NCBI GenBank assembly: GCA_049656545.1 | Contig: JBASLW010000084.1 | Location: forward strand, 1-50,293 | Direction of reading: 5' to 3' | Origin: Methylococcaceae bacterium | GTDB lineage: Bacteria; Pseudomonadota; Gammaproteobacteria; Methylococcales; Methylomonadaceae | DNA: 50,293 bases | Shown here: positions 24,830-50,293 of the stretch, in pieces | How positions within the stretch are numbered: position 1 is the first letter of the stretch | Layout of the letters: every line of letters starts with the position of its first letter | Notes under the pieces: generated by a model | Databases searched by the model: none | The model's input: only the letters and a program-made list of their open reading frames with translations | Told to the model about the DNA's origin: nothing | Made by a program: the position numbers and the translations under genes

Positions 24830-26446
24830 ATGACAGAAAAGGCTGAATTTAGTTACGAACATTATTTGGAAATGAAGCACATCGTCAGCCAGTTTGAAAA
24901 ATTGACCGACATCGGCATTTCTTTATCGTCTGAACATAACACCACGGAATTATTAGAAAAAATTTTAGTTGGTGCGATTTCATTAACGAATTCGGATGGT
25001 GGCACGATTTATATGGTACATGATGATAAAACCATTAAAAGCGCGATTATTCATTCGACCAGTTTAAACATCCATCTAAAAGGCAGTAATGAAGCGATTA
25101 TTTCGGTGTCGTTATACAACGAAAATGGTGAACCGAATTTAAAAAACGTTGTCAGTTATTCATACCACAAAGATATAACGCTAAACATTCAAGATGCTTA
25201 TGACAGTGAAGCATTTGATTTTAGTGGCACAAAATTATTTGATGCAAAAAACCATTACCGTTCAACGTCTTTTCTTACCGTTCCTTTAAAAAATCACGAA
25301 TTTGAAACCGTTGGAATGCTGCAATTGATTAACGCGCTAGATGCTAAAACGGGTAATGTGATTCCTTTTGATTCTATCGCACAACGTTTTTGCGAATCAC
25401 TTGCCAGCGAAGCCGCCACCGCGTTGACAAAACAACAATTGATTATCAATTTAGAACAAATGTTTGAATCAATGATTATGTTGATTGCGAACGCGCTAGA
25501 TGAAAAATCACCTTATAACGGTGGACATTGTCGACGTGTTCCTGAATTAACCATGATGATTGCTGAAGCCGCTCATAATACAAATGACGGTTATTTAAAA
25601 GATTTTTCATTGAGTGATGCTGACCGTTATGAATTGAAAATTGCAGGACTGTTACACGATTGCGGCAAAATTACTACGCCTGAATATGTCGTCGATAAAG
25701 CAACAAAACTGGAAACAATTTTTGATCGAATTTATTTATTAGAAACCCGTTTTGAAGTGTTAAAACGTGATGCTGAAATTGCGATGTTAAAACAAAAAGT
25801 CGCCGCGTTAGAAGTAGGACAAGATCCCCAAAATGAACTTTTAGATTATTTGTTTAACGAACGGATTACCTTGATTAACCAGCATTTCGCCTTTCTCAAA
25901 GAATGTAATAAAGGTAGCGAATTTACGTCACCTGAAAAACTACAAGCTCTGCAAGATTTACAGCAAATTACATGGCAACTTAACGGCGAATCTGTTCCGT
26001 TATTAAGTGGAAATGAATTGCATAATTTGAGTATTCCTTATGGCACATTGACAGAAATTGAACGTAAAAAAATCAACAATCACATTAGCGTCACTATTTC
26101 AATGTTGAATGCGATTAAGTGGCCTAAACATCTGAAAAATGTCACCAAATATGCAGGTGGGCATCATGAACGAATGGATGGCGGCGGTTATCCAAATGGA
26201 TTAACACGCGAAGAAATGCCAATTCAAGCACGAGCGATGGCGATTGCAGACGTTTTTGAAGCCTTAACCGCTTCAGATCGTCCTTATAAACCAGGTAAAA
26301 AATTGTCTGAATCGTTGTTTATTTTAGAAAAAATGAGCAAAACAGGACACATTGACCCCGATATTTATGCAGCCTTTATTTCACACAAAATTTATAAAAA
26401 ATACGCCGAAAAATTTCTAAAAGCTGAACAAATTGATGTTGATTAA
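24830..26446 (+). CDS. GAF-domain HD-GYP c-di-GMP phosphodiesterase
   Basis: 538 aa. N-terminal GAF-like region, then HD (LLHDCGKITTP) and HHERMDGGGYPNGL (the GYP motif), with a long insert between the two halves. Confidence 0.85.
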   Translation: MTEKAEFSYEHYLEMKHIVSQFEKLTDIGISLSSEHNTTELLEKILVGAISLTNSDGGTIYMVHDDKTIKSAIIHSTSLNIHLKGSNEAIISVSLYNENGEPNLKNVVSYSYHKDITLNIQDAYDSEAFDFSGTKLFDAKNHYRSTSFLTVPLKNHEFETVGMLQLINALDAKTGNVIPFDSIAQRFCESLASEAATALTKQQLIINLEQMFESMIMLIANALDEKSPYNGGHCRRVPELTMMIAEAAHNTNDGYLKDFSLSDADRYELKIAGLLHDCGKITTPEYVVDKATKLETIFDRIYLLETRFEVLKRDAEIAMLKQKVAALEVGQDPQNELLDYLFNERITLINQHFAFLKECNKGSEFTSPEKLQALQDLQQITWQLNGESVPLLSGNELHNLSIPYGTLTEIERKKINNHISVTISMLNAIKWPKHLKNVTKYAGGHHERMDGGGYPNGLTREEMPIQARAMAIADVFEALTASDRPYKPGKKLSESLFILEKMSKTGHIDPDIYAAFISHKIYKKYAEKFLKAEQIDVD

Positions 26447-27470
26447 GTTGATGCCAATTTTTTTATTGGCATTTTTGATTGGCGTTAGTTTTTGGATGTT
26501 ACAACCTTTTGTATTAACGTTGTTGTGGGCATTTATTATTTCATTTGTTTTATTTCCACTTTACAAACGTCTTAATCAATTTATTCAAAACGATACGCTC
26601 AGTGCGTTTGTTTTCACCTCTTTTATCACGGTTGTTTTAGTTGGTTTAACCTTTGTGATATTTCATTTAATCGAAAATGAAATCAAAAACGCTTACATTT
26701 TGTTATCAAATAACGTCGTTGAATCCTCGTGGCAATTACCCGAAAAAATTAGACACATTCCGCATATTGGTGATTATTTACAAGATAATCTGAATCGGCT
26801 GAAAAATAATCATCTGTCATTGACAGCACAGTTAATGGATTGGTTAAAAAACAGTTTTGGCATATTCGCGCAATTTTTTAGCCATATTGGACAACGAGTA
26901 ATTAAATTCAGTTTTGTTTTAGTCACCGTCTTTTTTTGTTTTCGAGATGGCGAATTATGGTTACAACAACTTAAACAATTTTTGCATTATTTTTTAGGCG
27001 ATGCTTACAGTTTATATTTGCAAACCGCAAGTGATACGACTCGAGCCGTCATTTATGGTTTAGTTTTAGCCGCTTTATCACAAGGTTTTATTGCGGGAAT
27101 TGGCTATTTTGTCGCGGGTGTAAAAATGCCGTTATTGCTTGCAATGCTCACCGCGTTACTGGCGTTAATTCCGATGGGAGCGACATTGGTTTGGTTGCCG
27201 ACAGCGTTAATGTTACTTATCGACAACCAATTATTCGCAGGCATTGGTTTAATAATTTGGGGATTTTTGGCAATTAGTACCATTGACAACGTGATTCGTC
27301 CGTTAGTCATTTGCGGCGCAAGTAAAATTCCTTTTTTAGTCGTGATGTTCGGTGTATTTGGCGGTTTATCAACATTTGGCACAATTGGTTTGTTTTTAGG
27401 ACCTGTGATTCTTTCTGTTCTTTTAGCAGTTTGGAAAAATTTTATTCGTTCGCTAAATGAAACATCTTAG
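26433..27470 (+). CDS. AI-2E family transporter (PerM/YhhT, UPF0118)
   Basis: 345 aa, multi-pass membrane protein with the family C-terminal block ([31 protein letters not shown]). The start is uncertain (26433 or 26451). Confidence 0.85.
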
Positions 27471-29566
27471 TTCGTTTTAAAATTCGATACCGTAACAGAT
27501 AATTTCCGTGCTTGTTCTTCAAGCGATTCTGCCCCTGCAGCGGCTTCTTCCACTAAGGCTGCGTTTTGTTGCGTGACTTCATCCATCTGAGAAATCGCAT
27601 GATTCACTTGAGCAATCCCTGCGCTTTGTTCAACTGACGCGGCAGTAATTTCACCCATAATTGCCGTCACGCCTTGAACAGCTTGAACAATTTCTTGCAT
27701 TGTTTGACCTGCTTTTGCGACCAATTGACTGCCATCTTCAACTTTATCGACAGAATCACCAATCAACATTTTAATTTCACCCGCCGCCGCTGCCGCCCGT
27801 TGCGCTAAATTGCGAACTTCTGTCGCAACGACAGCAAAACCACGACCTTGTTCACCTGCACGCGCCGCTTCAACTGCCGCATTTAGTGCTAAGATATTGG
27901 TTTGAAAGGCAATGTTATCAATTACTGAAATAATTTCGACCACTTTGCGCGAGGATTCATTGATGCTATCCATGGTTGTCACCACATTTCCCACCACAAT
28001 GCCGCCTTGACTTGCAATTCTTGCGGCTTCACGCGCTAATTGATTGGCTTGTGTGGCATTATCAGCATTGTGTTGAACGGTTCCTGTTAATTCGGTCATG
28101 CTCGCGGCTGTTTCTTCTAAACTTGTCGCTTGTTTTTCAGTTCGTTGCGACAAATCATTATTTCCCGCTGCAATTTCTTGTGCAGCAGTGTTAATTTGCA
28201 AAGTAGAATCTTTAATTTCACCCACTAAGGCTTGTAAATTTTCGACAGTGCAATTGATTCCTTCGACAACTTTACCAAACGTGCCAGGGTAATTTTGGGT
28301 AATTTTTTGCGTTAAATTACCTTGAGCAAGCGACGTTGAAACACGCAAAATATCATTGAACCCCGTGTCGCACGTTGTGAGTAATTTATTTAAATCACTC
28401 AGCATATCGCGGAACATAAATTCAAAATCATCGGCATTGGCACGTTTTGAAAAATCACCCTCTAAGCCCGCTTTCGCTAAAATTTCAATTTCATTACTAA
28501 TTAAAAACAAGGCTTTTTTAATACCGCTCATTGCTTCCGTAATTATTCGTGTTTCACCTGGTAATTCTTCCATATCAAGCGAAAAATCGCCTTTTGCATA
28601 TTGAGCAACGATTTCAATAATTCTACGATTTATGCTAACGCGCGATTGAATTAAATCGTTCATTTGTTGAGCAATACGTTGATAAGTCCCTGAAAATTTA
28701 GAGACATCTACCATCACTTTTGGATAGCCCTTTTTATGTTGCTCTGCCATCATATCTTGTGCTTCAACAAAAGAATTCAACGCATTTTGCATCATGTTCA
28801 TTGAACGTAATAAATCGCCAATTTCATCGATTTGTGAAATATCAATTTTTGAACTCAAATCTCCCATTGCGATTGCATTGGCAATTTGTTGAGAAGATTT
28901 TAACGAACGCAAAATGCCTCGACTAATCAACCAAGTAACAATCGATGCTAAAACGATACTAAAACTGAAAATAGCCAGTAATCCAATATCAAAACTACCA
29001 ATTAAATTTTTAGCGTGTTCTTCATCTTTTGCATTACGTTTCGTTGTTTTTGCAACGACTTCATCAATCGCAGCACGGTGTTTTTCATAACTGGCTTTTA
29101 TTTTTGCCAAACTCGTTTCAACAGCCGCAGAATTGCCTGCTTGAACACTGGGAATAAAATTTTGTTGTGCTTCGTTATAAAAATCTTCGGCAGCGTGATA
29201 AGAATTTTCTAATAACAATGTTTTCAATTCAGGTTCAAGCGATTCATTTTGCCAATAAGTGTGACGTGTATCGTATTCACCTTTTAACACTTGAAAACGA
29301 TTAGCTAATGCTGAAATCTCATCTGGATTTGTAACGTGTGTAAGTTGTAAAACCACCAAATAGGATTCAAGAATATATTCAGGTGGCGGCAAAATATCGG
29401 CAATTAAATCTTTGCCTTGGACAATACGTTGATAAATAGGACCATTTACGTTGAGCGTACTCATTGCTTTCAATGTGGCAATACCAAAAAGCGTAAAGCC
29501 AATAATTAAAATACTTAAAATAATGCCAAACCTGGCTTTAATCGTAAATGAAGAGAATTTGTTCAT
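27467..29566 (-). CDS. Transmembrane methyl-accepting chemotaxis protein with periplasmic helical sensor and several HAMP-like repeats
   Basis: Canonical signalling tip ([37 protein letters not shown]) and two TM segments. The ATG at 29566 (MNKFSSF, with AGGA 8 nt upstream) is preferred over the ORF-track start at 29596. No C-terminal pentapeptide. Confidence 0.9.
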
Positions 29567-29618
29567 AATTTTTGTCCTAAAATTTTTACCGCGCATTTGT
29601 CACAAACTATATCTTGTA

Positions 29619-31878: not shown

Positions 31879-32946
31879 ATGACGGAAGAACACCTTACTC
31901 TGCACACAACGGACATACTCATCGTCGATGACACTTTGCCAAATTTACAATTGTTGACTTCAATTCTTAGAGAAGAAGGTTATAAAGTCCGCCCTGCCAG
32001 TTCAGGCGCGTTGGCGTTACAAGCCATTGCCAAAAAATTACCCGATTTAATTTTACTCGACATCAAAATGCCTGGTTTTGATGGTTATGAAGTGTGCGAA
32101 ACCTTAAAAAATAATCCTGAAACCAAAGATATTCCCATTATTTTTATCAGCGCGTTAAGTGATATTAGCGACAAAATAAAAGCCTTTAACGTTGGTGGTG
32201 TGGATTACATTAACAAACCGTTTCAATTTGAAGAAGTCAGAGCGCGTGTAGCAACCCATTTAAAACTGCAAGCCTATCAACGAGAAATGGCAAGTCGTGT
32301 CGCCGAAGCGGTTGAAGAAATCCACGTTTTAAATCAAGAAATTATTGATACGCAACGCGAATTGATTTTTACAATGGGTGAAATTTGCGAAACCCGTTCA
32401 CAAGAAACAGGTTTGCACGTTAAGCGTGTGGCGGAGTATTCCTACTTACTAGCAAAATTATCGGGCGTTGATGAAAGTATTGCGTCAATGATTAGACAAG
32501 CCTCACCGATGCACGATATTGGAAAGGTAGCGATTTCAGACGAAATTTTGCATAAAAATGGAAAATTAACACCAGAAGAATGGGAAATTATGAAAACACA
32601 TTCGACGTTAGGGCATTCTATGTTGTCAGTTTCAAATCGACCATTGCTACAAATGGCGGCAACTATCGCGCTAGAACATCATGAACGATGGGATGGGAAA
32701 GGGTATCCAAATGGGGCGAAAGGTGAAAATATCAGTCTAGCTGGTCGAATTACAGCCATTGCAGATGTGTTTGATGCCTTGGGTTCAATGCGTTGTTACA
32801 AAAATGCGTGGGAATTACCCGAAATTTTGACTTTTTTCAAAGAAGGACGAGGTAAACATTTTGATCCCAGATTATTAGATTTATTTTTTGACCATTTGAA
32901 CGAATTTTTAATCATTCGAGATGAATTTAAATGTAAAGAATGCTGA
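31879..32946 (+). CDS. Response regulator with HD-GYP output (RpfG family c-di-GMP phosphodiesterase)
   Basis: 355 aa. REC domain (ILIVDD, LLDIKMPGFDG) plus HD-GYP (MHDIGKVAI, HHERWDGKGYPNG). Confidence 0.9.
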   Translation: MTEEHLTLHTTDILIVDDTLPNLQLLTSILREEGYKVRPASSGALALQAIAKKLPDLILLDIKMPGFDGYEVCETLKNNPETKDIPIIFISALSDISDKIKAFNVGGVDYINKPFQFEEVRARVATHLKLQAYQREMASRVAEAVEEIHVLNQEIIDTQRELIFTMGEICETRSQETGLHVKRVAEYSYLLAKLSGVDESIASMIRQASPMHDIGKVAISDEILHKNGKLTPEEWEIMKTHSTLGHSMLSVSNRPLLQMAATIALEHHERWDGKGYPNGAKGENISLAGRITAIADVFDALGSMRCYKNAWELPEILTFFKEGRGKHFDPRLLDLFFDHLNEFLIIRDEFKCKEC

Positions 32947-37124: not shown

Positions 37125-39041
37125 ATGAAAAAATCTGTTGGTTATTATTTCCCCCATTCACTTAAAGCACGTTTAATTATTCTGACGTTATTGTTTTTAC
37201 TTTTACCGACAGGAATTTTAGGTTATCTCGGTTACGATTATTTATATAACACCATTAAAAACAATAACATTCGCGCTGTTGGACACATTGCAGATTCACG
37301 TCATGAACAACTTAACGTGATGCTTCAAAATACAAATAATCGAGCAACCCATTTTCTTGAAAATCTTTCTTTGCAATGTGAATCGGGAAATAAGCGAAAA
37401 ATCAATGATTGTTTAAAACAGGCGTTACAACTTTTTCTGAATAATGAACAAGCGTTAAGTGCCATTTTTACGAATGCAAATGGCGAAAAAATTAAAGTTG
37501 GTGATACGTTTTTATCTGAAATTTTGCCTTTCAAATCAAAACAATTAGTTGGCTTTAGTGCGCCTGAAAAAAATACACCCCGTTTATATTACATCGTCAT
37601 CCAAAATGAAAAAGGTGAACATTTAATCGTCACGTTTCCCATTCTTGAAATTCAAAAAATTTTTATCAGCGACCCCAGTTTAGGCGAATCGGGCGACGTT
37701 TTTATTATGGATTCGGAAGGTTTTTTTATTACGCAACCGCATTTACTTGATACCGATAGTCCGCAAGAAGCCAAAAATGACCACGCAATGCACCATTGTT
37801 TAATGATGGGTAACGCTGAAATGCTTGATGTGGATAGGCGAAATGTCGAAATTATTCACAGTTTTCGATTTGTCCCTGAAGTTGGTGGCGGTTGCATCAT
37901 GGCACATTTAGATCAAGCAGAAGCCTTTTCGGCGTTAGATATTCTGCAATGGCGTGTCATTTGGATTACGTTAGGGTTGATTATTTTTGCTTTGATTCTC
38001 GCGCTAATTGTTGGACGAAATATCGTCAAACCAATAGAAAAACTTTGCGCGGTGACACATCAAATTATTAACGGCAACTACACAATTTCAGCCGTTGTTG
38101 CTGGAGATGACGAAATTGCTGAATTAGCAAATGCGTTTAATTTAATGACAGAACGTTTGAAATGCGCGTTTGATGAATTAAATGCCCATCGCGCTCAACT
38201 TGAACATAAAGTTCAAAAACGCACCGCTGAATTATCAATTGCAAAGGATGAAGCAGAGCAATCGTTAATGTTATTGCAACAAACCAAAGAAAATTTAGTT
38301 CAAGCCGAAAAAATGGCAGCATTAGGTGGTTTGGTTGCGGGAATTTCGCACGAAATCAATACACCGATTGGCATTACAGTTACGTCCGCTTCATTTTTAA
38401 ATGTAGAAACGAACAAAGTCATTGAACTTTATCAAGAGGGAGAATTGGGCGGTGACGAATTAGAATTCTATTTTGAAACCGCCAAACAATCCACAGAATT
38501 GATGATGATAAATTGCCAACGTGCAGCAGATTTGATTCACAGTTTTAAACAAATTTCTGTTGATCAAACTAGCGATAATTTGCGTGAATTTAATTTGAAA
38601 AATTATCTGGAAGAAATTTTATTAAGTTTGCGTCCTGCGCTTAAAAAAACACGGATTAACGTTGAATTAAATTGTTTACCAAGTTTATTTGTTTTTGGTT
38701 ATCCAGGTGCGATTTCGCAAATTGTGACCAATTTTGTCATGAATTCTTTGTTTCATGCCTACGAACCGAATCAAATCGGCACGATTAAATTAAATGTTAC
38801 GCTGTTTTCAGCACACAAAATTGAGTTGTGTTATAGCGATGACGGAAAAGGAATTCGACACGATATTCAAAATAAAATTTTTGACCCTTTTTTCACGACA
38901 CAACGCGGTAATGGCGGCAGCGGTTTAGGGCTTCATGTTGTGTATAACCTTGTGCATCAAGTGTTAAAAGGCTCACTGCAAATCGACAGCATTGAAGGTA
39001 AAGGTACTACTTTTATTGTTAATTTTCCAAAACGAATGTAA
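37125..39041 (+). CDS. Sensor histidine kinase (periplasmic Cache-like domain, HAMP, DHp, HATPase)
   Basis: 638 aa, two TM segments, HAMP (DEIAELANAFNLM), H-box GISHEINTPIG, and N/G boxes (NSLFHA, GSGLGLH). Confidence 0.85.
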   Translation: MKKSVGYYFPHSLKARLIILTLLFLLLPTGILGYLGYDYLYNTIKNNNIRAVGHIADSRHEQLNVMLQNTNNRATHFLENLSLQCESGNKRKINDCLKQALQLFLNNEQALSAIFTNANGEKIKVGDTFLSEILPFKSKQLVGFSAPEKNTPRLYYIVIQNEKGEHLIVTFPILEIQKIFISDPSLGESGDVFIMDSEGFFITQPHLLDTDSPQEAKNDHAMHHCLMMGNAEMLDVDRRNVEIIHSFRFVPEVGGGCIMAHLDQAEAFSALDILQWRVIWITLGLIIFALILALIVGRNIVKPIEKLCAVTHQIINGNYTISAVVAGDDEIAELANAFNLMTERLKCAFDELNAHRAQLEHKVQKRTAELSIAKDEAEQSLMLLQQTKENLVQAEKMAALGGLVAGISHEINTPIGITVTSASFLNVETNKVIELYQEGELGGDELEFYFETAKQSTELMMINCQRAADLIHSFKQISVDQTSDNLREFNLKNYLEEILLSLRPALKKTRINVELNCLPSLFVFGYPGAISQIVTNFVMNSLFHAYEPNQIGTIKLNVTLFSAHKIELCYSDDGKGIRHDIQNKIFDPFFTTQRGNGGSGLGLHVVYNLVHQVLKGSLQIDSIEGKGTTFIVNFPKRM

Positions 39042-39056
39042 AAAAATCTCAACACA

Positions 39057-40535
39057 ATGACTGAAAAAAAACCGCTTAACTTAAAAACTCAAAATACATT
39101 TTCATCTAAATTAACCACAACGTCTCATGCTATACCGTGGCGAATTTTAGTTGTCGATGATGAAGAAGATGTTCATTCCGTGACGCGCTTAATTTTGACA
39201 AAAATTGCGTTTAAAAATCGTCCTGTTGAATTATTGTGTGCTTATTCTGCGTTTGAAGCGCGTGACATTTTGGCGCGTGAAAAAAATATCGCGGTGATTT
39301 TGCTTGATGTCGTGATGGAAACCGATGATGCGGGATTGCGACTGGTTAAAATTATTCGTGATGATTTACATAATCATGAAGTTCGGATTATTTTGCGAAC
39401 AGGACAACCAGGACAAGCTCCCGAAGAGCGCGTGATTGTTGATTACGATATTAACGATTACAAAGCGAAAAACGAATTAACCTCGCAAAAATTATTTACC
39501 GCTGTGATTTCTGCATTACGCGCTTATGAAACCATTATGTCGCTCAATAAAACACGACGCGGGTTAGAGAAAATTCTGCACAGTTCAGATTCTCTTTTTA
39601 AAATTCAATCGATGCACGAATTTGCATCGGGAATTTTGGCGCAATTAAGTTTATTTTTGGATTGTCAACCGCAAGGCATTATTTGTATTGAACAAAATAG
39701 AGATGGCGATGTTGAACCGATTTCCTGTTTGCCAAACAACATGAAAATTATTGCGGTAACAGAAGAATTTGAATGTTGTTTGCGTTGTCATTTAGACCAT
39801 TCGTGTGGACATGACGAAATTGCCAACATGATTAAAACCGCGTTATACGAACGAAAAAATCAATTTAGTGAGCAATACTCCGCCTTTTATTTAGACACTA
39901 ATGACGATAAAGCGACCATTGCGTTGGTGTATAGCGAAAAAGAAATTGAAAAACACGATTTGGATTTACTTGAAGTTTTCACGTCAAAAATTTCGATTGC
40001 GTTAGCTAACGCGATTCATTATCAAAAAATGGTTACCTTTGAAAAAGCGGCTGTGACCGATTTTTTAACGAATTTGAATAATCGTCGTCAGTTGTTACGT
40101 TTAGGTTTGCCGATGTTAGCATTGGCAAATCGCAATAATCGATTAGCAGTCGCCATGATTGACATCGATTTGTTTAAACAAGTGAATGATTTATATGGTC
40201 ATGATGTTGGCGATATTGTGTTGAAACACATTAGCAAAATGATGGGTGAGCGTTTTCGTAGTTGTGATGTGGTGGCGCGTTATGGTGGTGAAGAATTTTG
40301 CATTCTTGCGCCGTCATTGAATTCACCACAATTAGCCTTTGAATTATTTGATAATTTTCGAATATCGTTAGCAAATTCAGACATTCAAATTTCAGAAACA
40401 CAAACGTTGAAAATTACAGTCAGTATCGGTGTAACAACCGATTTATGTCCCAATTTAGACGATATGATTACAGCCGCTGATTATTTGTTGTACAAAGCGA
40501 AAAATAAAGGGCGAAATTGCGTAATGGTAAAATAA
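39057..40535 (+). CDS. Response regulator REC-(DUF3369-like linker)-GGDEF diguanylate cyclase
   Basis: 492 aa. REC ([36 protein letters not shown]), then a GGDEF domain with an RYGGEEF active site and an RSCD I-site. Confidence 0.9.
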
Positions 40536-42100: not shown

Positions 42101-42547
42101 ATGAAAAAAATAACAACAATAATCATCAATGGAATGTTAGTTTTTGCGGTACAAAATACCGCATTTGCAACACACGAAGATGTAACTAAAACGTCTGATA
42201 CTGACAAAATAAGTCAGCTTGAAAATGTAGTCAAAAATCTTGAGGCGCGTGTCAGCCAATTAGAAAAACTGACCAAATTGCCACATTCTGAAGCCTCTCA
42301 CGAAGAAGAAAAAATTGACCCTAAATCAGGTTGGAAATACAGAAAATCTTGGTTACAACTCAAAGTAGGAATGCCAACGCAGCAAGTTGACAAGATTTTA
42401 GGTCATCCTACTAGAATTGATAATATGGGGGGCGGGTTTAAAAAATTCTTTTATTGGGGTGAACTACCTACAGGTGCAATTAGCGGTTATCTCGAAATGT
42501 ATGAAGGTAAAATTTACAAAATTTATATTCCTGAATTTCATGAATAA
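42101..42547 (+). CDS. Hypothetical secreted protein (coiled-coil N-terminus, BamE/SmpA-OmlA-like C-terminus?)
   Basis: 148 aa with a signal peptide (MKKITTIIINGMLVFAVQNTAFA). C-terminal LKVGMPTQQVDKILGHP...FYWG resembles small BamE-like domains. Weak call. Confidence 0.55.
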   Translation: MKKITTIIINGMLVFAVQNTAFATHEDVTKTSDTDKISQLENVVKNLEARVSQLEKLTKLPHSEASHEEEKIDPKSGWKYRKSWLQLKVGMPTQQVDKILGHPTRIDNMGGGFKKFFYWGELPTGAISGYLEMYEGKIYKIYIPEFHE

Positions 42548-42657: not shown

Positions 42658-43386
42658 CTAAACACCTGTACCAACTTGTAACGAATCAAACCAATCTAAG
42701 AAGCGTTTTACATCGTCACCTTTAAACATCCGTCCATGTTGAGGAGCTAAAATATCAATATCTAAATTTCTAACACGGTCAATCCAAGCACGTTTTGCTT
42801 GATTTGATGGCATCATACGTTGATGGTAATAACGCATTTTTTCAACGTGAACATCAAAACGTTCTACGAAAACAGGCGCACCTGCATTTTCAAATGCAGA
42901 ACCGACACTGCCACACATCAAAATTTTCGCAACAGGATCATAAACATGAAAACCACAAGGCGAATGTAAATAATGAGCAGGAATCAATTGCAATTCAACC
43001 GCTTCAATTTTAATCGTTTCGCCATTATCTGGAATTGGCACATATTCAATTGATTCACAACCGAAATGTCTAATGTAACCTTCCCACAACGCAGGCGCGT
43101 GTAATCTCGCATTTGATAAGGCTTGATCCCACAAACCTAACGATGAAATCACGTCAGGGTCTTGATGCGAAGCAAATAAATCGGTGATTTGTTCAACAGG
43201 TGCATGATGCAAAACAGCTGCCATCATCGGCGCAAATAACTCTGTACCACCTGGCTCAAGTAATAAACATTTATTCGCTGTGCGAACAATATATTGATTA
43301 CTATCAATAATGTTATCGGGTTTATTTTCGTCGCGCCCAAACATCACCCATTGATGCGCTCCTTCGTAAATTTTAGTCATTTTCAT
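42658..43386 (-). CDS. ODP-like protein: stand-alone flavodiiron-type metallo-beta-lactamase-fold domain
   Basis: 242 aa, collinear with the N-terminal MBL domain of flavodiiron proteins (QYIV....LLLEPGG, ASHQDPDV at the HxExDH position, IPAHYLHSP, LMCGSVGSAF, RYYHQRMMP, APQHGRMF). No flavodoxin domain. Strong RBS (AGAGGAG). Last gene of the che operon. Confidence 0.6.
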   Translation of the reverse strand: MKMTKIYEGAHQWVMFGRDENKPDNIIDSNQYIVRTANKCLLLEPGGTELFAPMMAAVLHHAPVEQITDLFASHQDPDVISSLGLWDQALSNARLHAPALWEGYIRHFGCESIEYVPIPDNGETIKIEAVELQLIPAHYLHSPCGFHVYDPVAKILMCGSVGSAFENAGAPVFVERFDVHVEKMRYYHQRMMPSNQAKRAWIDRVRNLDIDILAPQHGRMFKGDDVKRFLDWFDSLQVGTGV

Positions 43387-43404: not shown

Positions 43405-44019
43405 TTAACTATTGCGATAAATGGATAATGCGATTCGGCAACGTTGCACATTATCATGAATGGTATGTGCGGCTTTATCGACACTTTCGGCGACCGCTTG
43501 CAAACTTTGCAAATACTCACCTGCTTGCGATGCTTCAATGCGAGAGTTTGCCGCAATAACACGGGCAGCTCTGGCATGGTGCATCACCGCTTCGAGTTGC
43601 CCCAACAATTGTGTAACATCACGTTTAAATTGACGTTGACAATCTTGCATAATGGTTCGTGCATGTGTAATCGGTTCTTGCATTGAATCCGCATAACGTG
43701 CGCCAACGGCTAATTTTCCAACTTGTTCAAAGCGGTTGTAAGCGGCGGTACGTCTGTATTCATTCACGGTTAAACGGTACAAAAGTAACGCATAAACGTT
43801 GATATTGGTGACTAATTCAATGGTTTCTTTTGCTAATTCGTTAATAAAATCGGTAATCGGTTGAAAGCCTTTCGCTTTATCACCTGCGCGAAACGCAATG
43901 GCTTTTGCATTTGCAGCGGCTAACGAAATTTCTTTTGCCACGACCATAACGGCACTCAACTCCGACGTAATCGAAGCGACCGCGATAAATTGTGATTTTG
44001 TCTGACTGTTCATAATCAT
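43405..44019 (-). CDS. Small soluble MCP-signalling-domain-like protein with two hairpin-tip-like motifs
   Basis: 204 aa with no TM segment. Residues 30-66 (EISLAAANAKAIAFRAGDKAKGFQPITDFINELAKET) and 153-184 (RVIAANSRIEASQAGEYLQSLQAVAESVDKAA) both align to the MCP tip consensus [31 protein letters not shown]. Confidence 0.6.
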   Translation of the reverse strand: MIMNSQTKSQFIAVASITSELSAVMVVAKEISLAAANAKAIAFRAGDKAKGFQPITDFINELAKETIELVTNINVYALLLYRLTVNEYRRTAAYNRFEQVGKLAVGARYADSMQEPITHARTIMQDCQRQFKRDVTQLLGQLEAVMHHARAARVIAANSRIEASQAGEYLQSLQAVAESVDKAAHTIHDNVQRCRIALSIYRNS

Positions 44020-44075: not shown

Positions 44076-45149
44076 TTAGCGCAATCCTGTTTTAACTAAT
44101 GCCAAAACTTTCTCGGCAATATCATCTAATGGCACAACATAATCCGCGCAACCCAATTTAAAGGCAGCACCAGGCATTCCCCAAACAACACTCGACGCTT
44201 CATCTTGTACAATAGTTTTTGCACCCGATTCTTTCATTGCTTGCATCCCAATTGCGCCATCTGCTCCCATTCCTGTTAGCAAAACGCATACCGCATTTGA
44301 ACCTGTACATTTTGCAGCGGAATGAAACAACACATCAACAGAAGGTTTATGTCGATTAACAGGCGCACCGTCTTGTAATTGAATAATGTACTGGTTGTTG
44401 TTTCGTATCACTTCCATGTGTTGATCGCCAGGTGCAAGATAGATATTGCCCCATTCAACAACCTGTCCATGAGTCGGAATACTGGCAGTCATATCGGTCG
44501 CTGCGTCAATATGTTTAACAAATGAATCACTAAATGCCGCTGGTAAATGTTGTGTAATCAAAATGGGCGGACAATCTGCTGGCAGTGTTTTAACAACCAC
44601 TTTAATCGCTTCTGTACCACCTGTGGACGAACCGAGTACGATAATTTTATTAAATCCTGTCGCATTTCGTGCCGCAATCATGCGTTTAATTGCCAACGTT
44701 TCTTGCGAATGCTGCGCGGCTTCGCCATGACCTTGAAGCGTTTTTAAATTTGTGCGTGACGCAATGCGAACTTTTGAAATAATTTCAGCCGTGTAATCAG
44801 CTAATCCTGTTTCAGTGTTACCTTTGGGTTTTGCTAAAAAATCCACTGCCCCAATCGCCAACGCTTCAAGTGTTGCTTCTGCACCGCGTTCTGTTAGCGT
44901 CGAAATCATGACAACAGGCGTTGGACGCAAGCGCATTAAATTTCGTAAAAACGTAATGCCATCCATTTGCGGCATTTCAATATCGAGTGTTAATACATCA
45001 GGATTGAGTTGTTTAATCATTTCCCGAGCAATTAGCGGATTTTCAGCCGCACCAACCACTTCAATATCGTCAGCGGTTTCTAATATACTCGTTAAAATTT
45101 TGCGGACTAACAATGAATCATCAATAATCAATACACGGATTTTATTCAT
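44076..45149 (-). CDS. cheB: Chemotaxis response regulator protein-glutamate methylesterase CheB
   Basis: 357 aa. REC (VLIIDDS, LTLDIEMPQMDG) plus an esterase domain (GSSTGGTEA, the HMEV region, LTGMGADG). Confidence 0.95.
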   Translation of the reverse strand: MNKIRVLIIDDSLLVRKILTSILETADDIEVVGAAENPLIAREMIKQLNPDVLTLDIEMPQMDGITFLRNLMRLRPTPVVMISTLTERGAEATLEALAIGAVDFLAKPKGNTETGLADYTAEIISKVRIASRTNLKTLQGHGEAAQHSQETLAIKRMIAARNATGFNKIIVLGSSTGGTEAIKVVVKTLPADCPPILITQHLPAAFSDSFVKHIDAATDMTASIPTHGQVVEWGNIYLAPGDQHMEVIRNNNQYIIQLQDGAPVNRHKPSVDVLFHSAAKCTGSNAVCVLLTGMGADGAIGMQAMKESGAKTIVQDEASSVVWGMPGAAFKLGCADYVVPLDDIAEKVLALVKTGLR

Positions 45150-45161
45150 GTTTGGCTCGAC

Positions 45162-45797
45162 TTAAAATAACTCAACATCGCCTTCAACAGGCAACTCTTT
45201 AATGTTTCTGGAGTATTGACGTTCCCGTTGAGCAATAGTGTCATTGTGTAAATCTTGAATTTTTTTCATACCGACTTTGCCCGTTTTAGGAAAATAAATC
45301 ACTTTTCGTGGATAAATATCTCCTAAATCTTTGGACAATAACGCTAACCCTTCTTGGTCGATGTAATCCAAAACAAAACTGATATTTCGTTCTCCCACAT
45401 CGCTTAACGTCGGAATAATTTTTCCACCACCAAACACTTTGACTTCTAAATTTTTACGTTTTCCACCATTTGACAAAATGGTGTTAATTAAATGTTCCAT
45501 CGCGTAATTGCCGTAACGTGTAGCATTACCAATCATCGCGTCACTACCTTGGCGCATTTTTTCCGCGTACGTTTCAGGCAACATAAAATGATTCATACCA
45601 CCAATACCTGTTTCTTTATCTCGAATACAGGCTGCAATACACGAACCTAACACGGTGGTAATTAACTCATTTTGAGTTGTAACGTAGTATTCGCCTGGCA
45701 AAATCTTGGCGGCAATAACGCCATGATCTTGATCTAAATAACGATTCACATGGTCAAAACCTTGAACCGAGGGTCTGTCAATTTGATTGCGATCCAT
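45162..45797 (-). CDS. cheD: Chemoreceptor glutamine deamidase CheD
   Basis: 211 aa with TVLGSCIAACIRD, GIGGMNHFMLPE and VKVFGGG. Confidence 0.9.
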   Translation of the reverse strand: MDRNQIDRPSVQGFDHVNRYLDQDHGVIAAKILPGEYYVTTQNELITTVLGSCIAACIRDKETGIGGMNHFMLPETYAEKMRQGSDAMIGNATRYGNYAMEHLINTILSNGGKRKNLEVKVFGGGKIIPTLSDVGERNISFVLDYIDQEGLALLSKDLGDIYPRKVIYFPKTGKVGMKKIQDLHNDTIAQRERQYSRNIKELPVEGDVELF

Positions 45798-45803
45798 TTT
45801 ATT

Positions 45804-46640
45804 TTATATATTTTTTCTATAACTGGTGGTTGCCACTAATTCAAACTCGCTTGAAAGCTGATTCAAGGACTCTGAATGTCCAATAAATAACCAAGATTTA
45901 CTCACCAACAGTTTAGCATAACGTTTTGCAAGCGCAGCTTTAGTTTCGCGGTCAAAATAGATCAATACATTACGACAAAAAATTACATCAAATGGCGTAG
46001 TCATTGACCATTCCTGCATCAAATTAAGTTGCCGAAACTGAATGATTTCTTGCAATTGCGGTTTAACTTTAACGTATTCAGGTGATGATTTACTTTTCAT
46101 AAACCAACGTTTTAAAACAGACGTTGGTAATTCAGCAATTCTGTCTTGAGCATAAATGCCTTCTGAAGCCGTTTGTAAAACTTGCGTATCTAAATCGGTC
46201 GCTAAAATTTTAACATCCCAATCTGACGGGACATTTTCAAGCATCGTCATTGCGATAGAATAAGGTTCTTCACCTGTTGAACAACCCGCAGACCAAATCC
46301 GAATTTGTTTTGTTGCCGCATTACGTTTTAACAATTCAGGAATGACAACTTCACGCAAATAATCAAAATGGTGCATTTCACGGAAAAATGACGTGAGATT
46401 TGTCGTAATTGCGTTAATAAAATCGGTAAATTCCTCTTCATGATTGCTTTGCAAATAATCGCAATACTCTGAAAAGTCGTTTAACCCCAAACGGCGTACT
46501 CGTTTTGAAAGACGTGAATAAAACATATCAAAACGTTCGTCTGGTACTTGAATTCCTGAATGGGAATTCGACAATTTTCTTAAAACGTTAAAGTCTTCGA
46601 CGGTAAATTTAAATTCACGCTCTTTTTCTACAATAGCCAT
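45804..46640 (-). CDS. cheR: Chemotaxis protein methyltransferase CheR
   Basis: 278 aa with TNLTSFFRE, IRIWSAGCSTGEEPYSIAM and IFCRNVLIYFD. Confidence 0.93.
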   Translation of the reverse strand: MAIVEKEREFKFTVEDFNVLRKLSNSHSGIQVPDERFDMFYSRLSKRVRRLGLNDFSEYCDYLQSNHEEEFTDFINAITTNLTSFFREMHHFDYLREVVIPELLKRNAATKQIRIWSAGCSTGEEPYSIAMTMLENVPSDWDVKILATDLDTQVLQTASEGIYAQDRIAELPTSVLKRWFMKSKSSPEYVKVKPQLQEIIQFRQLNLMQEWSMTTPFDVIFCRNVLIYFDRETKAALAKRYAKLLVSKSWLFIGHSESLNQLSSEFELVATTSYRKNI

Positions 46641-46668
46641 TTACGCCCGCCCCTAACTTGCGACACCA

Positions 46669-47388
46669 CTACTCAGATATTTCAAGCACTGATAATAAAT
46701 CCAATAATTTAGCGGATTCAATAAATCGCGCTGATGGATAAATAATGTTGATAGTTTTGCCTAAATTTGGTGCATCTTTTTTTAGAGAAACTAACATTTG
46801 AAATGTGGCGGTATCAATGGTTGTGACATCTGAAGCGTTAATTTCAATTGTATCGTGAGCTGCCAACGTTTTTTTGAATGTTTCATGAAGTTCAGCAATC
46901 GTTTTCAAACTGGCTTCACTTCCTAATTCCACTAACGGTTCAATGAATGCGTCAATGATTTCTTCTTCAATAACAGTTTCTTCAGGCATCGCGTCACTCT
47001 CAGTCTGGGCTTCTTCGGTTTGTTCGCTAATTTCCTCAACAAGAGCATCTAAAACTGCGTTTTCCGTTTGCGATTCAGTGTTTTCGGATGCAACATCAAT
47101 TTGAATTGCTACGTTTTCGTTTGCTTCAATCGTAATTTCAATTTCGCCGTTTTCATCAATGCTTACGTCAATTTCAACTTCTTCATCAACAATTTCGTCT
47201 GTTTTTTCCAACACAACGGGCAATTCTTCAGGTGTTTCTGCTACGTTTTCAGTTTCTTCAATAACAGGCGCGGTTTTCGATTTCGCTTTTGCTCGCACCT
47301 TTTTTACTGGCGCAACAGGAACGTCGTCAATCGTTTCGCCATCCATCCATGCTAAAGGATCGTAACCAATTAAATTATTTGTTGTCAT
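46669..47388 (-). CDS. Highly acidic protein with N-terminal basic peptide and C-terminal STAS (anti-sigma-antagonist-like) domain
   Basis: 239 aa. N-terminus LIGYDPLAWM then VKKVRAKAKSK, a Glu/Asp-rich linker of about 120 aa, and a C-terminal region of about 90 aa with a STAS-like pattern (LKTIAELHETFKK...IEINASDVTTIDTATFQMLVSL). The start overlaps the parA-like stop by 14 nt. Confidence 0.55.
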   Translation of the reverse strand: MTTNNLIGYDPLAWMDGETIDDVPVAPVKKVRAKAKSKTAPVIEETENVAETPEELPVVLEKTDEIVDEEVEIDVSIDENGEIEITIEANENVAIQIDVASENTESQTENAVLDALVEEISEQTEEAQTESDAMPEETVIEEEIIDAFIEPLVELGSEASLKTIAELHETFKKTLAAHDTIEINASDVTTIDTATFQMLVSLKKDAPNLGKTINIIYPSARFIESAKLLDLLSVLEISE

Positions 47389-48148
47389 TGTTCATTACTC
47401 TATTTTCAAGAAAATCATTGGCAAGGTTGCGGAAATCTCGTGCAGAACGGCTTTTAGGACTGTATTCCAAAATCGTTTGCCCAAAACTAGGACATTCGGC
47501 AAGCAAGGCAGTTTCACGAATGACGGTCGCTAAAACCTGATTCGGGAAATGTGACAATAAAATGTTTAATACCTGATCTGAAATTCGGCGTGTCGAAATA
47601 AACCGAGAAATCACCACGGACAATTTATATTGTCTTTTCAACGCCCCTTCAAAGCGTTTCACTGTCGCCATTAAATGCGATAAACCTTGCAACGATAAGA
47701 AATCACTCGCCATTGGTACTAAAATTTCATGCGTGGCAATTAACGCATTTGCGACAAGTAAGCCAGACGATGGTGGACAATCAATAAAGATAAAATCTTG
47801 ATCGACAAGTTGTCCTTTTAACGCATCACGCAACAAAACGCCTCTCGGTGTTCCGTTATTACTCATTTGTTCAACATCTTTGAGCTTTGAACCTGCGGGA
47901 ATCAATTGCAAATTCTCACGCACTTTTATTGTGACATCTTCAACCGTTTTTTCTTTAAGCATTGCTAAGTCAATGCCCTGAAGATCGTGAGAAATAACAC
48001 CAAATGAAACGGCTAAATGTCCTTGCGGGTCAAAATCAATCACCGTTACTTTTTTGCCTAATTCCGCTAATGCGTGACACAAATTCGCCGTCGTCGTCGT
48101 TTTACCTACGCCGCCTTTTTGATTGATAATGGCAATTAAACGTGTCAT
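47375..48148 (-). CDS. ParA/MinD-family ATPase embedded in the che operon (ParC/PpfA-like)
   Basis: 257 aa with the deviant Walker A (INQKGGVGKTTT), IIDCPPS-type Walker B (FIFIDCPPS) and a ParA-like C-terminus. Confidence 0.85.
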   Translation of the reverse strand: MTRLIAIINQKGGVGKTTTTANLCHALAELGKKVTVIDFDPQGHLAVSFGVISHDLQGIDLAMLKEKTVEDVTIKVRENLQLIPAGSKLKDVEQMSNNGTPRGVLLRDALKGQLVDQDFIFIDCPPSSGLLVANALIATHEILVPMASDFLSLQGLSHLMATVKRFEGALKRQYKLSVVISRFISTRRISDQVLNILLSHFPNQVLATVIRETALLAECPSFGQTILEYSPKSRSARDFRNLANDFLENRVMNNDNK

Positions 48149-48150
48149 GT

Positions 48151-48681
48151 CTACAAGTCTTCAGCTTCAGCAAAATCTGAAATAGCTTCCATGTCATCAA
48201 CTTCATCTGGATTGAGAAGTTTATCGACATCAAGCAACATAATCATATTTTGTTTATAAACGTGCATTCCTCGCATATAACGAGTGTCAAGTTGCGAACC
48301 AAAATTTGGGGCTTTTTTGATTTCATTCGTTTTAATATCAAGTACATCCGATACCGCATCTGCCACAATTCCCATGACAAATGTATCAGTACGATGATGT
48401 TTAATACATAAAACAATAACAACCGTTTTGTGTGTATATTCGCAATGTTCAAGTGAAAAACGTTCGCGCAAATCGACAATTGGAATCACAGAGCCACGCA
48501 AATTCAAAACGCCTTTGATAAAAGAAGGGGCATTAGGAATAACACGAACAGCTTCCCACCCTCTGATTTCTTGTACTTTTAAAATTTCCACGCCATAGAC
48601 TTCGTTAGCGAGTTCAAACGTTAAAAATTGTTCGATTTGTTTAGGATCTATTTGTTTATTTGAATCAGTTGTCATGGTCAT
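48151..48681 (-). CDS. cheW: Chemotaxis coupling protein CheW
   Basis: 176 aa with FLTFELANEVYGVEILKVQEI and GVLNLRGSVIPIVDLR. Confidence 0.93.
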   Translation of the reverse strand: MTMTTDSNKQIDPKQIEQFLTFELANEVYGVEILKVQEIRGWEAVRVIPNAPSFIKGVLNLRGSVIPIVDLRERFSLEHCEYTHKTVVIVLCIKHHRTDTFVMGIVADAVSDVLDIKTNEIKKAPNFGSQLDTRYMRGMHVYKQNMIMLLDVDKLLNPDEVDDMEAISDFAEAEDL

Positions 48682-48720
48682 TCCCAGCGGATTATTTTGA
48701 TTTAACAGTTACAGATTTTA

Positions 48721-50293
48721 TTAAAATTCTTCCCAATCATCACCAATACTGTTCACCGATGAAGTAACTGGTTTTGAAACGATGGATTTATTTGATTGTG
48801 ATGCGTTTGCCGCAGGTTTTGAAGCCATTACTTGATGTCGTGCTGAACCCGATTTTTTGCCAACACTAAAGAAATCAAGCAATTTTGTCATTCTCGCTGA
48901 TTGATCACTCATTGCCATACTACCTGCGGCGGCTTCTTCGGCTAATGCAGCATTTTGTTGGGTAATGTCGTCCATTTGTGCAATAGCTTGATTGACTTGA
49001 TTGATTCCCGCCGATTGTTCACTACTTGATAACGTAATATGTCCAACAATATCGCCCACTTTGGCAATACTATCGACAATTTCCATTAACGCTGCCCCTG
49101 TTTCATTTACAAATGCCGTGCCAGAACGCACTTTTTGAACACTATTTTGAATTAGCTCGCTACTTTGTGCGGCAGCATTCGCGCTACGTTGTGCTAAATT
49201 TCTGACTTCTGTTGCAACAACTGAAAAACCACGACCTTGTTCACCTGCTCTCGCGGCTTCAACGGACGCATTTAATGCTAACAAATTTGTTTGGAACGCA
49301 ATTTCATCAATCACACCAATAATTTCGGCAATTTTATTACTACTTTCATTGATTTCTTGCATCGCCATGATTGCTGAACGAACAACGTCACCACCTTTTT
49401 CAGCCAATTGTGTTGCTGATTGAACCACTTTTGTCGCTTGATTTGTATTTTCAGCATTACTTTTTACCGCACTCGACAATTCGTGCATACTCGCGGCGGT
49501 TTCTTCTAAACTTGCCGCTTGTTGTTCAACACGATGTGACAAATTGTTGTTACCACTTGCCATTTCTTGTGACGAATTATTGACAAATGCCGCCGCTTCA
49601 TGAATCTGAACAATCAACTCGCTAATTTTACTCATTGTGTTATTGATATTTTCTTTACATTCAGCGTAAGTACCTTGGTAATCGGCTTGTATAGAATCCG
49701 TTAAATCACCATTCGACATTTTTTCGACAACGCGATTGATTTCACTAAACGCATTCTCAATCACGTCTGTTAATTCATTGATGTTAATCGATAAGGCTTT
49801 AGCAAAACCCTCTTTGCCAACTAAATTGATTCTCGCATTAAGCTGACCCACTTTGATTGAATTCACCAAGTTTTGGATTTCATATTCAATTTGCGTTTCT
49901 TGAGTTCTATCAAGCCATTCTGCAACATACCCAATTCGCTCACCATTGTTTGTAATAACAGGTGTTGCAATCACTTGCATCACATGACCTGCCAACTTAA
50001 TTTCTATCGTTGCAGACGATTGCAAATTAAAAAGCAAATCTCGCTGATAAGTCGGATTTTTATGGAATATACTAAAATTTGTGCCTAACAATTGTGCGGC
50101 TTTAAAATTAGGTAATTCTTTTCTAATGTCATTTTCAGCGTTGATAAATAAATTTTTTGCCGCCTTATTGATATAAATAACTTCTAAATTTGAATTTGCA
50201 ATTAAAACGCTAGATTGAACGTTTTCTAAACCACTGATAATTCGTATCGAATCCGCTGTTGCTTGGCGCGAAGCACCTAAATCGCCACCTAAT
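48721..50293 (-). CDS. Aer2/McpB-like soluble chemoreceptor (PAS-heme, di-HAMP, MCP signalling domain, C-terminal DWEEF), 5' end outside window
   Basis: I translated the frame manually and it stays open to the window edge (...[49 protein letters not shown]...AEWLDRTQE). This matches the P. aeruginosa Aer2 PAS as I remember it, including the FHKNP His and a Trp exactly 49 residues later. Canonical tip [26 protein letters not shown]. Ends GDDWEEF. Confidence 0.85.

Follow-up and report, generated by a model that had tools for sequence, protein, structure and literature searches.

The 50,293-nucleotide stretch of Methylococcaceae DNA analyzed here (the window) carries a gene for a small soluble protein in which the kinase-control tip of a methyl-accepting chemotaxis protein (MCP) occurs twice, and this gene is directly followed by one for an oxygen-binding di-iron protein (ODP). 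We consider it probable that this protein, hereafter the mini-receptor, is a naturally occurring pseudo-dimer of the receptor tip, built from one chain, through which the O2/Fe(II) state of ODP reaches CheA/CheW. The argument draws on the internal repeat and its conservation across a family of fixed architecture, on the pairing with ODP across genomes, on predicted structure and coevolution, and on precedents in other bacteria. From these we infer the CheW/CheA binding, ODP binding, signaling direction, and oligomeric state proposed below.

A short soluble protein with a repeated tip motif

An earlier note on this DNA had described a 204-aa ORF with two tip-like motifs 121 residues apart, and both the ORF and the repeat were confirmed. 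In most homologues translation starts at the position of the second ATG (44013), which yields a protein of 202 aa, and residue numbers throughout follow this 202-aa numbering. The motifs fall inside the ranges originally proposed for them (nt 43822-43932 and 43468-43563), and the features of the gene are as follows:

43405..44019, reverse strand: gene of the double-hairpin MCP-like protein (ORF and translation, 204 aa; four helices predicted)
43831..43917, reverse strand: hairpin 1 tip, motif 1, AANAKAIAFRAGDKAKGFQPITDFINELA (Pfam MCPsignal, N-half HMM, family conservation)
43687..43719, reverse strand: variable linker between hairpins 1 and 2, approximately residues 99-109 (indel map, DSSP loop 102-107)
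43468..43557, reverse strand: hairpin 2 tip, motif 2, IAANSRIEASQAGEYLQSLQAVAESVDKAA, a diverged duplicate (internal repeat, C-half HMM, conservation, indels)

The sole domain match in Pfam and NCBIfam was a weak one to MCPsignal (PF00015), which aligned aa 14-74 with profile positions 32-92 and scored 22.3 bits for the whole protein and 21.1 bits for the N half, below the gathering threshold of 34.6 bits. No MCPsignal match was obtained with Pfam for the C half alone, even at E 10, and NCBIfam returned negligible matches only and no fitting model. The profile search suggested in the earlier note thus bore out the first tip, through one weak sub-threshold match, and failed to recover the second. 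Since Pfam misses the C half and does not by itself show two domains, we relied instead on repeat and profile tests. Motif 2 lies at an offset of exactly 121 residues from motif 1 in an ungapped alignment, so that the gap previously inserted in the second motif is unnecessary. When the N half was compared with the C half by BLASTP, they shared 28% identity over 69 aa (E 5e-6). Splitting a 135-member family alignment in two and comparing the parts with hhalign returned the same register, likewise ungapped, with an E-value of 2.6e-5; overall, the halves are 25–28% identical to each other. An HMM built from the C half alone recovered the tips of both canonical MCPs encoded in the window, aligned in register, at 17.2 bits (E 5e-4) and 16.1 bits (E 1e-3) for 2236 ORFs, and the N-half HMM scored 25.2 and 22.1 bits against these same tips. 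The turn of hairpin 2 predicted in the AlphaFold model falls exactly on the aligned G-E. Taken together, these comparisons identify hairpin 2 as a diverged internal duplicate of the MCP tip that is missed by curated profiles.

Beyond the two tips, the protein seems to carry none of the usual receptor modules, in agreement with the initial reading that it lacks a transmembrane segment, a sensor domain, and methylation helices. Kyte-Doolittle analysis revealed no convincing transmembrane segment, the top 19-residue mean (1.65) corresponding to an amphipathic stretch that contains a Glu, and no sensor domain was detected with Pfam or NCBIfam. A motif scan for the methylation consensus [ASTG]2-x2-[EQ]2-x2-[ASTG]2 found none in the window protein and two in each of the two canonical MCPs of the window; within the family, 3 of 135 members carry one.

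A family of fixed length with two complementary hairpins

A word-indexed search returned 453 homologues, the best 120 of which were all at least 72% identical, and those among these 120 with a named source were from Methylococcales. A homologue search with a diverse profile recovered Methylococcales again and nothing else, and the one name attached to listed cluster members was 'Gammaproteobacteria bacterium'. The exhaustive profile search, covering 1.84 billion representatives, yielded 291 clusters (50% identity) at E <1e-3 and 200 at E <1e-10, nearly all of them 195–220 aa long and matched by the profile from end to end. This fixed length of ~200 aa, together with the end-to-end matches, indicates a distinct family with a fixed architecture rather than a fragment of longer MCPs. 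Among 150 diverse members, identity to the window protein ranged from 24 to 41%. Homologues are labeled "chemotaxis protein", "methyl-accepting chemotaxis protein" or "hypothetical" in databases, and some carry a precomputed PF00015 match. With Pfam scores below threshold and no NCBIfam model, the family is probably under-counted in chemoreceptor censuses.

Across the 150 diverse members, N35 of hairpin 1 is invariant, and conservation reaches at least 90% for R42, A43, G44, and F50 of hairpin 1 and for E160 and A161 of hairpin 2. We take N35, R42, A43, G44, and F50 to be the counterparts of Tsr N381, R388, A389, G390, and F396, and E160 and A161 those of Tsr E385 and A386. Both tips can be aligned in register with those of the two canonical MCPs in the window. 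When read against the tip motif N..E..RAGE.GRGF, hairpin 1 keeps N35, R42-A-G44, and G49-F50, and hairpin 2 keeps E160-A and, in part, A-G-E, with G-R-G-F lost and a Leu at the position equivalent to F396. The two hairpins have therefore kept different subsets of the canonical tip residues. Hairpin 2 is among the most conserved parts of the family, and a one-residue insertion exactly at its tip (residue 165/166) is present in ~17% of members.

Length variation is otherwise confined to one place, as the linker (residues 99-109) is the only indel-rich segment of the protein. The spacing from F50 to L136 differs by -6 to +4 residues, in single-residue steps, in 28% of the 150 members, while that from N35 to F50 is fixed in 150/150 and that from L136 to E160 in 149/150.

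ODP as the invariant genomic partner

The genes around the mini-receptor in the window are the following:

42658..43386, reverse strand: ODP gene (Pfam PF19583, 213 bits)
44076..50293, reverse strand: upstream che cluster encoding an MCP, CheW, a ParA-like ATPase, a STAS protein, CheR, CheD, and CheB (Pfam)
48721-50293, reverse strand: MCP at the window edge, its N-terminus cut off (the stop-to-stop frame runs off the window)

The ODP gene begins 18 nt past the mini-receptor stop, in the same orientation and with a strong ribosome-binding site of its own (AAGAGGAG), and the mini-receptor gene starts 56–62 nt after cheB. On the reverse strand, the order in the window is MCP - CheW - ParA-like - STAS - CheR - CheD - CheB - mini-receptor - ODP. 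The complete counterpart of this cluster, in Methylobacter tundripaludum SV96 (L025), reads CheA - CheW - PAS-PAS-HAMP-MCP (Aer2-like) - CheW - ParA - STAS, followed by CheR - CheD - REC - CheB - mini-receptor - ODP, and the orthologue of the edge MCP in this locus is a 777-aa PAS-PAS-HAMP-MCPsignal (Aer2-like) receptor with CheW and CheA before it. By description, this che cluster resembles the Aer2-centered F7 clusters of V. cholerae and Methylomicrobium (PMC7184735). The CheW proteins of the cluster are single-domain (163–176 aa), and Pfam revealed no triple-CheW protein in the window or in the M. tundripaludum cluster.

We then compared neighborhoods across 86 loci, 82 of which included enough downstream sequence. 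ODP was encoded directly downstream of the mini-receptor in 81 of these 82 loci, and 215 nt downstream in the remaining one. The linkage to che genes, for which the earlier note had suggested a check among homologues, was found as well, with cheB directly upstream in 64 loci. These cheB-linked loci came only from the Methylobacter/Methylovulum/Methyloglobulus group, where the gene lies at the end of an Aer2-type che cluster. No cheB was present upstream in Methylomonas, in Methylomarinum, or, where upstream sequence sufficed, in the distant metagenomic members; in Methylomonas, Methylomarinum, and distant metagenomic (gammaproteobacterial) contigs, the pair sits among housekeeping genes and the pairing with ODP is kept. 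For two further distant members, found on short contigs, only the adjacent downstream gene is visible. ODP thus accompanies the gene in every locus with enough downstream sequence, and linkage to che genes is a trait of one clade. A VCA1088/McpA-like receptor was also considered as the gene following cheB, and was rejected because such receptors are described as 24H-class rather than as a double mini-hairpin (PMC7534058).

Several other genes in these regions relate to signaling. A ParA/MinD-like ATPase (47375-48148, reverse strand) overlaps by 14 nt with a STAS-domain protein (46669-47388, reverse strand) that has a long acidic N-terminus. The two sit inside the che cluster, between cheW and cheR, and recur as a pair in M. 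tundripaludum (L025 5298-6606); by analogy, they are reminiscent of the ParA-type positioning of chemosensory arrays. L025 also includes, between cheD and cheB, an extra stand-alone receiver-domain ORF of 139 aa (8129-8548, forward strand) that is absent from the window. Far from the che cluster, the window encodes a second MCP of 709 aa (27467-29596, reverse strand) whose poly-HAMP array includes matches to HAMP_N3 and McpB_HAMP_2, models characteristic of receptors of the Aer2/McpB type. A 148-aa ORF convergent with the ODP gene (42101-42547, forward strand) displays a signal-peptide-like N-terminus and a coiled-coil-like stretch, with no Pfam match. The surroundings are signaling-rich overall, with a GAF-HD (HD_5) protein (24830-26446, forward strand), a REC-HD-GYP-type protein (31879-32946, forward strand), and, judged from sequence alone, a gene for a putative histidine kinase that precedes one for a putative receiver-diguanylate cyclase (37125-40535, forward strand).

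A proposed relay from ODP to the kinase

ODP is an O2/Fe(II) sensor for chemotaxis, and in T. denticola it is genetically coupled to TDE2496, an MCP homologue without transmembrane and sensor modules that modulates CheA (PMC7666581). According to a bioinformatic survey (summarized in PMC7319448), some groups of ODP genes share operons with MCP genes. Engineered fused dyads, made of 2 x 71 receptor residues including those of TM14, can bind CheW as well as CheA and regulate the kinase (bioRxiv 10.1101/2020.03.27.011866; PMC4692393). The best PDB match of the family profile was TM14 (E 5e-11), followed by TM1143 (3e-8) and Tsr (7e-4). Muok et al. 2019 are said to have described TM14 as the Thermotoga ODP partner. 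It is from the ODP pairing, the precedent of TDE2496 and TM14, and the precedent of the dyads that we propose the mini-receptor as an ODP relay. An adaptor coupling the adjacent ODP-like sensor to the array was one of two roles raised for this protein in the earlier note, and judging from the adjacency in 81 of 82 loci, the relationship to TM14, and the TDE2496 precedent, this role fits well.

In the proposed scheme, the mini-receptor would have arisen by internal duplication of the MCP kinase-control tip, and would be sensor-less, soluble, and methylation-independent. Each hairpin would have arms of up to ~55 residues, roughly seven heptads, and a short variable loop would join helices 2 and 3 at their tops; such a short loop would let the hairpins pack side by side, with both tips at the same end. 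The resulting one-chain bundle would mimic the tip of a receptor homodimer, as a natural counterpart of the engineered single-chain dyads. As the dedicated partner of the ODP encoded downstream, it would receive the ligand state of ODP, dock by its tips onto CheW / CheA-P5, and probably combine into mixed trimers with the Aer2-like receptors encoded by the neighboring che cluster. The kinase output of CheA would then shift with the ligand state of ODP, without methylation-based adaptation.

The pattern of conservation may extend this scheme. In an ordinary receptor homodimer, the subunit that faces the trimer axis is distinct from the one that binds CheW or P5 (PMC6681711). Since the canonical residues kept by hairpin 1 and hairpin 2 are complementary, these two subunit roles could, by inference from the alignments, be divided between them. 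Hairpin 1, with its N381-equivalent, R-A-G, and G-F, would serve the trimer axis, and hairpin 2, with E-A kept, would provide the outer face for CheW, CheA-P5 or ODP, on arms of ~seven heptads with no adaptation region. We hold only tentatively, and with clearly less confidence than the relay itself, the full form of this idea, i.e., that the mini-receptor is an obligately asymmetric pseudo-dimer and the shortest natural kinase-control module, with hairpin 1 at the trimer axis and hairpin 2 on the outer face, relaying O2/Fe(II) into methanotroph Aer2-type arrays without methylation.

Hairpin 2 is without G-R-G-F and tolerates a tip insertion, so that this hairpin may not bind CheW or CheA at all, and as the pair lies far from any che gene in many genomes, an output other than CheA is possible. 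The protein could act outside the array, staying out of receptor trimers and mimicking a tip so as to sequester or inhibit CheW/CheA or to hold ODP, or the stand-alone pair could have a non-chemotaxis output. The occurrence of the pair as a portable module of two genes, with housekeeping genes on either side, in Methylomonas and metagenomic gammaproteobacterial contigs would be expected in this case, as would the deactivation of CheA by engineered single-chain dyads (bioRxiv 10.1101/2020.03.27.011866) and the lack of array density assignable to ODP in T. denticola (PMC7666581). In 64 loci, however, the gene forms the end of a complete che operon, right behind cheB, and we consider this alternative unlikely, albeit worth keeping in mind.

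Predicted arrangement of the two tips

In the relay as proposed, both tips lie at one end of the molecule, and we evaluated this through structure prediction, coevolution, and indels. AlphaFold2 gave a pLDDT of 85.5 and a pTM of 0.76 with 30 close sequences, and a pLDDT of 93.4 and a pTM of 0.85 with 150 diverse sequences, all five models in the latter case reaching at least 91. Model geometry was read off Foldseek matches rather than from coordinates or PAE. For both models, the best matches were single-chain four-helix "maquette" proteins of ~195 aa (6z0c, 8d9p, 5vju), with alignments spanning essentially the whole chain at an rmsd of 7–10 A (TM 0.51 for 5vju), and the extended MCP hairpin 2ch7, when aligned by sequence, gave an rmsd of 67 A. 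Foldseek found no significant structural homologue in the PDB (best E ~2e-3), and these matches were used to read topology only. Prediction of the monomer, suggested beforehand as a way to see opposite tips, thus returned a single-chain four-helix bundle instead. A caveat is that AlphaFold, when run on a monomer, is prone to bend long helices back.

Coevolution was estimated by mean-field DCA on a shallow alignment (252 sequences, Neff ~139 for 202 columns), with the origins set at the canonical tip residues D45 and E166. Of the 50 strongest couplings between hairpins, 23 connected positions at equal height (within 4 residues), compared to 16% expected (binomial p 6e-7), and when the origin of hairpin 2 was slid along the chain, the signal peaked at 0 and dropped on both sides. 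All 23 pairs are located at most 30 residues from the tips and together involve all four inter-hairpin helix pairs, e.g., F50-V174, I57-V174, A47-L171, A34-V178, I53-N156, and A26-R148. Equivalence of the repeats cannot account for eleven of them, which pair helices in antiparallel fashion (H2-H3 or H1-H4). Comparable enrichment was seen in intra-hairpin controls with the same origins. With DSSP loop positions as tip centers the intra-hairpin control was not enriched, and upon switching to D45 and E166 both controls and the inter-hairpin set were. The couplings fit packing in cis and a domain-swapped dimer equally. The length of the linker also bears on topology, as a continuous coiled-coil helix would not accommodate changes in single-residue steps. 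Taken together, the AlphaFold/Foldseek results, DCA, and linker indels favor a predicted single-chain four-helix bundle with the tips side by side.

These results leave little room for the other role raised in the earlier note, that of a DosM-like bridge or cap between baseplates. Helices 2 and 3 would then form one continuous rod, and a homodimer with opposite tips would staple or cap two CheA/CheW baseplates in a thin cytoplasmic sandwich array. The helix order of the mini-receptor (arm, tip, arm, linker, arm, tip, arm) fits a folded-back bundle and a DosM-like rod alike, and the order arm, tip, long arm, tip, arm is that described for DosM (PMC7534058). Furthermore, the alignment of the family profile to the TM14 C-arm is collinear from helix 2 across the linker into the first part of helix 3, which would weakly fit a continuous helix, and a monomer AlphaFold run cannot model a homodimer. 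However, both models match compact single-chain bundles rather than rods, the coevolving equal-height positions near the two tips would lie ~15 nm apart in a rod, and the linker length changes of 1-2 residues seen in 28% of members would break its heptad phase. In addition, there is no triple-CheW protein, the cluster is Aer2-type and not F9, and neither hairpin reaches the Pfam threshold, while DosM has two signaling domains (PMC9321776). We thus regard an opposite-tip rod as very improbable. Least credible is the reading of the second motif as merely compositional, within an Ala-rich coiled coil of an ordinary short single-hairpin MCP fragment: the missing Pfam MCPsignal match in the C half and the spurious similarities common to coiled-coil sequences would allow it, but the halves align ungapped and in register by both BLASTP and profile–profile comparison, the C-half HMM recovers the tips of canonical MCPs at the expected register, hairpin 2 ranks with the best conserved parts of the family, and its predicted turn coincides with the aligned G-E.

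Implications for kinase control and methanotroph physiology

Receptor homodimers are symmetric in sequence and asymmetric in function (PMC6681711), and the separation of the two roles has so far needed engineered single-chain constructs. If the mini-receptor works as proposed, it would provide a ready-made minimal system for biochemical and structural studies of kinase control, as a soluble protein of ~22 kDa with a defined protein ligand, ODP. It would further suggest that methanotrophs such as Methylobacter, Methylovulum, Methylomonas, and Methylomarinum feed a di-iron O2/Fe(II) signal into their chemosensory arrays, which would bear on their positioning where O2 and CH4 gradients oppose each other. 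The family is of interest both to structural biologists working on arrays and for methanotroph physiology.

Comparison with known systems

The closest natural parallels are TM14 of T. maritima (PDB 3G67/3G6B) and TDE2496, which, like the window protein, are soluble, ~200–213 aa long, and without a sensor domain; the TDE2496 gene is also coupled to ODP, and for its product ODP binding and modulation of CheA are published (PMC7666581). The window protein shares with this type an ODP-adjacent, co-oriented gene and a soluble product without a sensor or transmembrane module. It departs from it in architecture: TM14 forms one long hairpin that homodimerizes, whereas the window protein has two short hairpins per chain and is modeled as four helices. 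Relative to TM14, ~60 N-terminal residues of the arm are missing, and one additional, diverged tip is present.

DosM of V. cholerae (VC1403) and the F9 receptors also combine tandem tip units on one soluble and usually sensor-less chain (PMC9321776). DosM, however, has two signaling domains, the domain organization having been confirmed with SMART in the reference study, and forms an extended rod with a tip at each end (PMC7534058, PMC9321776), while the window protein includes sub-threshold mini-hairpins, with one sub-threshold Pfam match over 202 aa, and predicted side-by-side tips. DosM co-occurs with a triple-CheW protein in F9 clusters (PMC7534058, PMC9321776), in contrast to the single-domain CheW proteins, the Aer2-like PAS-PAS-HAMP MCP with CheR, CheD, and CheB, and the ODP found here. 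With domains, triple-CheW, cluster type, and predicted geometry all different, the window protein is not a member of the DosM/F9 group.

No description of an ODP-linked double mini-hairpin family was found in the literature searched, a search to which Muok et al. 2019, which might show it, Wuichet & Zhulin 2010, and Briegel et al. 2016 were external. In form, the nearest counterparts are artificial. The engineered dyads (Tar and Tm14 'foldons', single-chain Tsr; PMC4692393) consist of two short-linked tip hairpins in a pseudo-dimeric four-helix bundle, as predicted here, although their halves are identical and an added trimerization motif is needed, whereas the halves of the window protein are diverged and each keeps different canonical residues. 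Overall, by analogy with these systems, the architecture of the mini-receptor appears to be a new variant rather than a new principle, one that would work like TM14 and TDE2496 and look like the engineered single-chain receptors.
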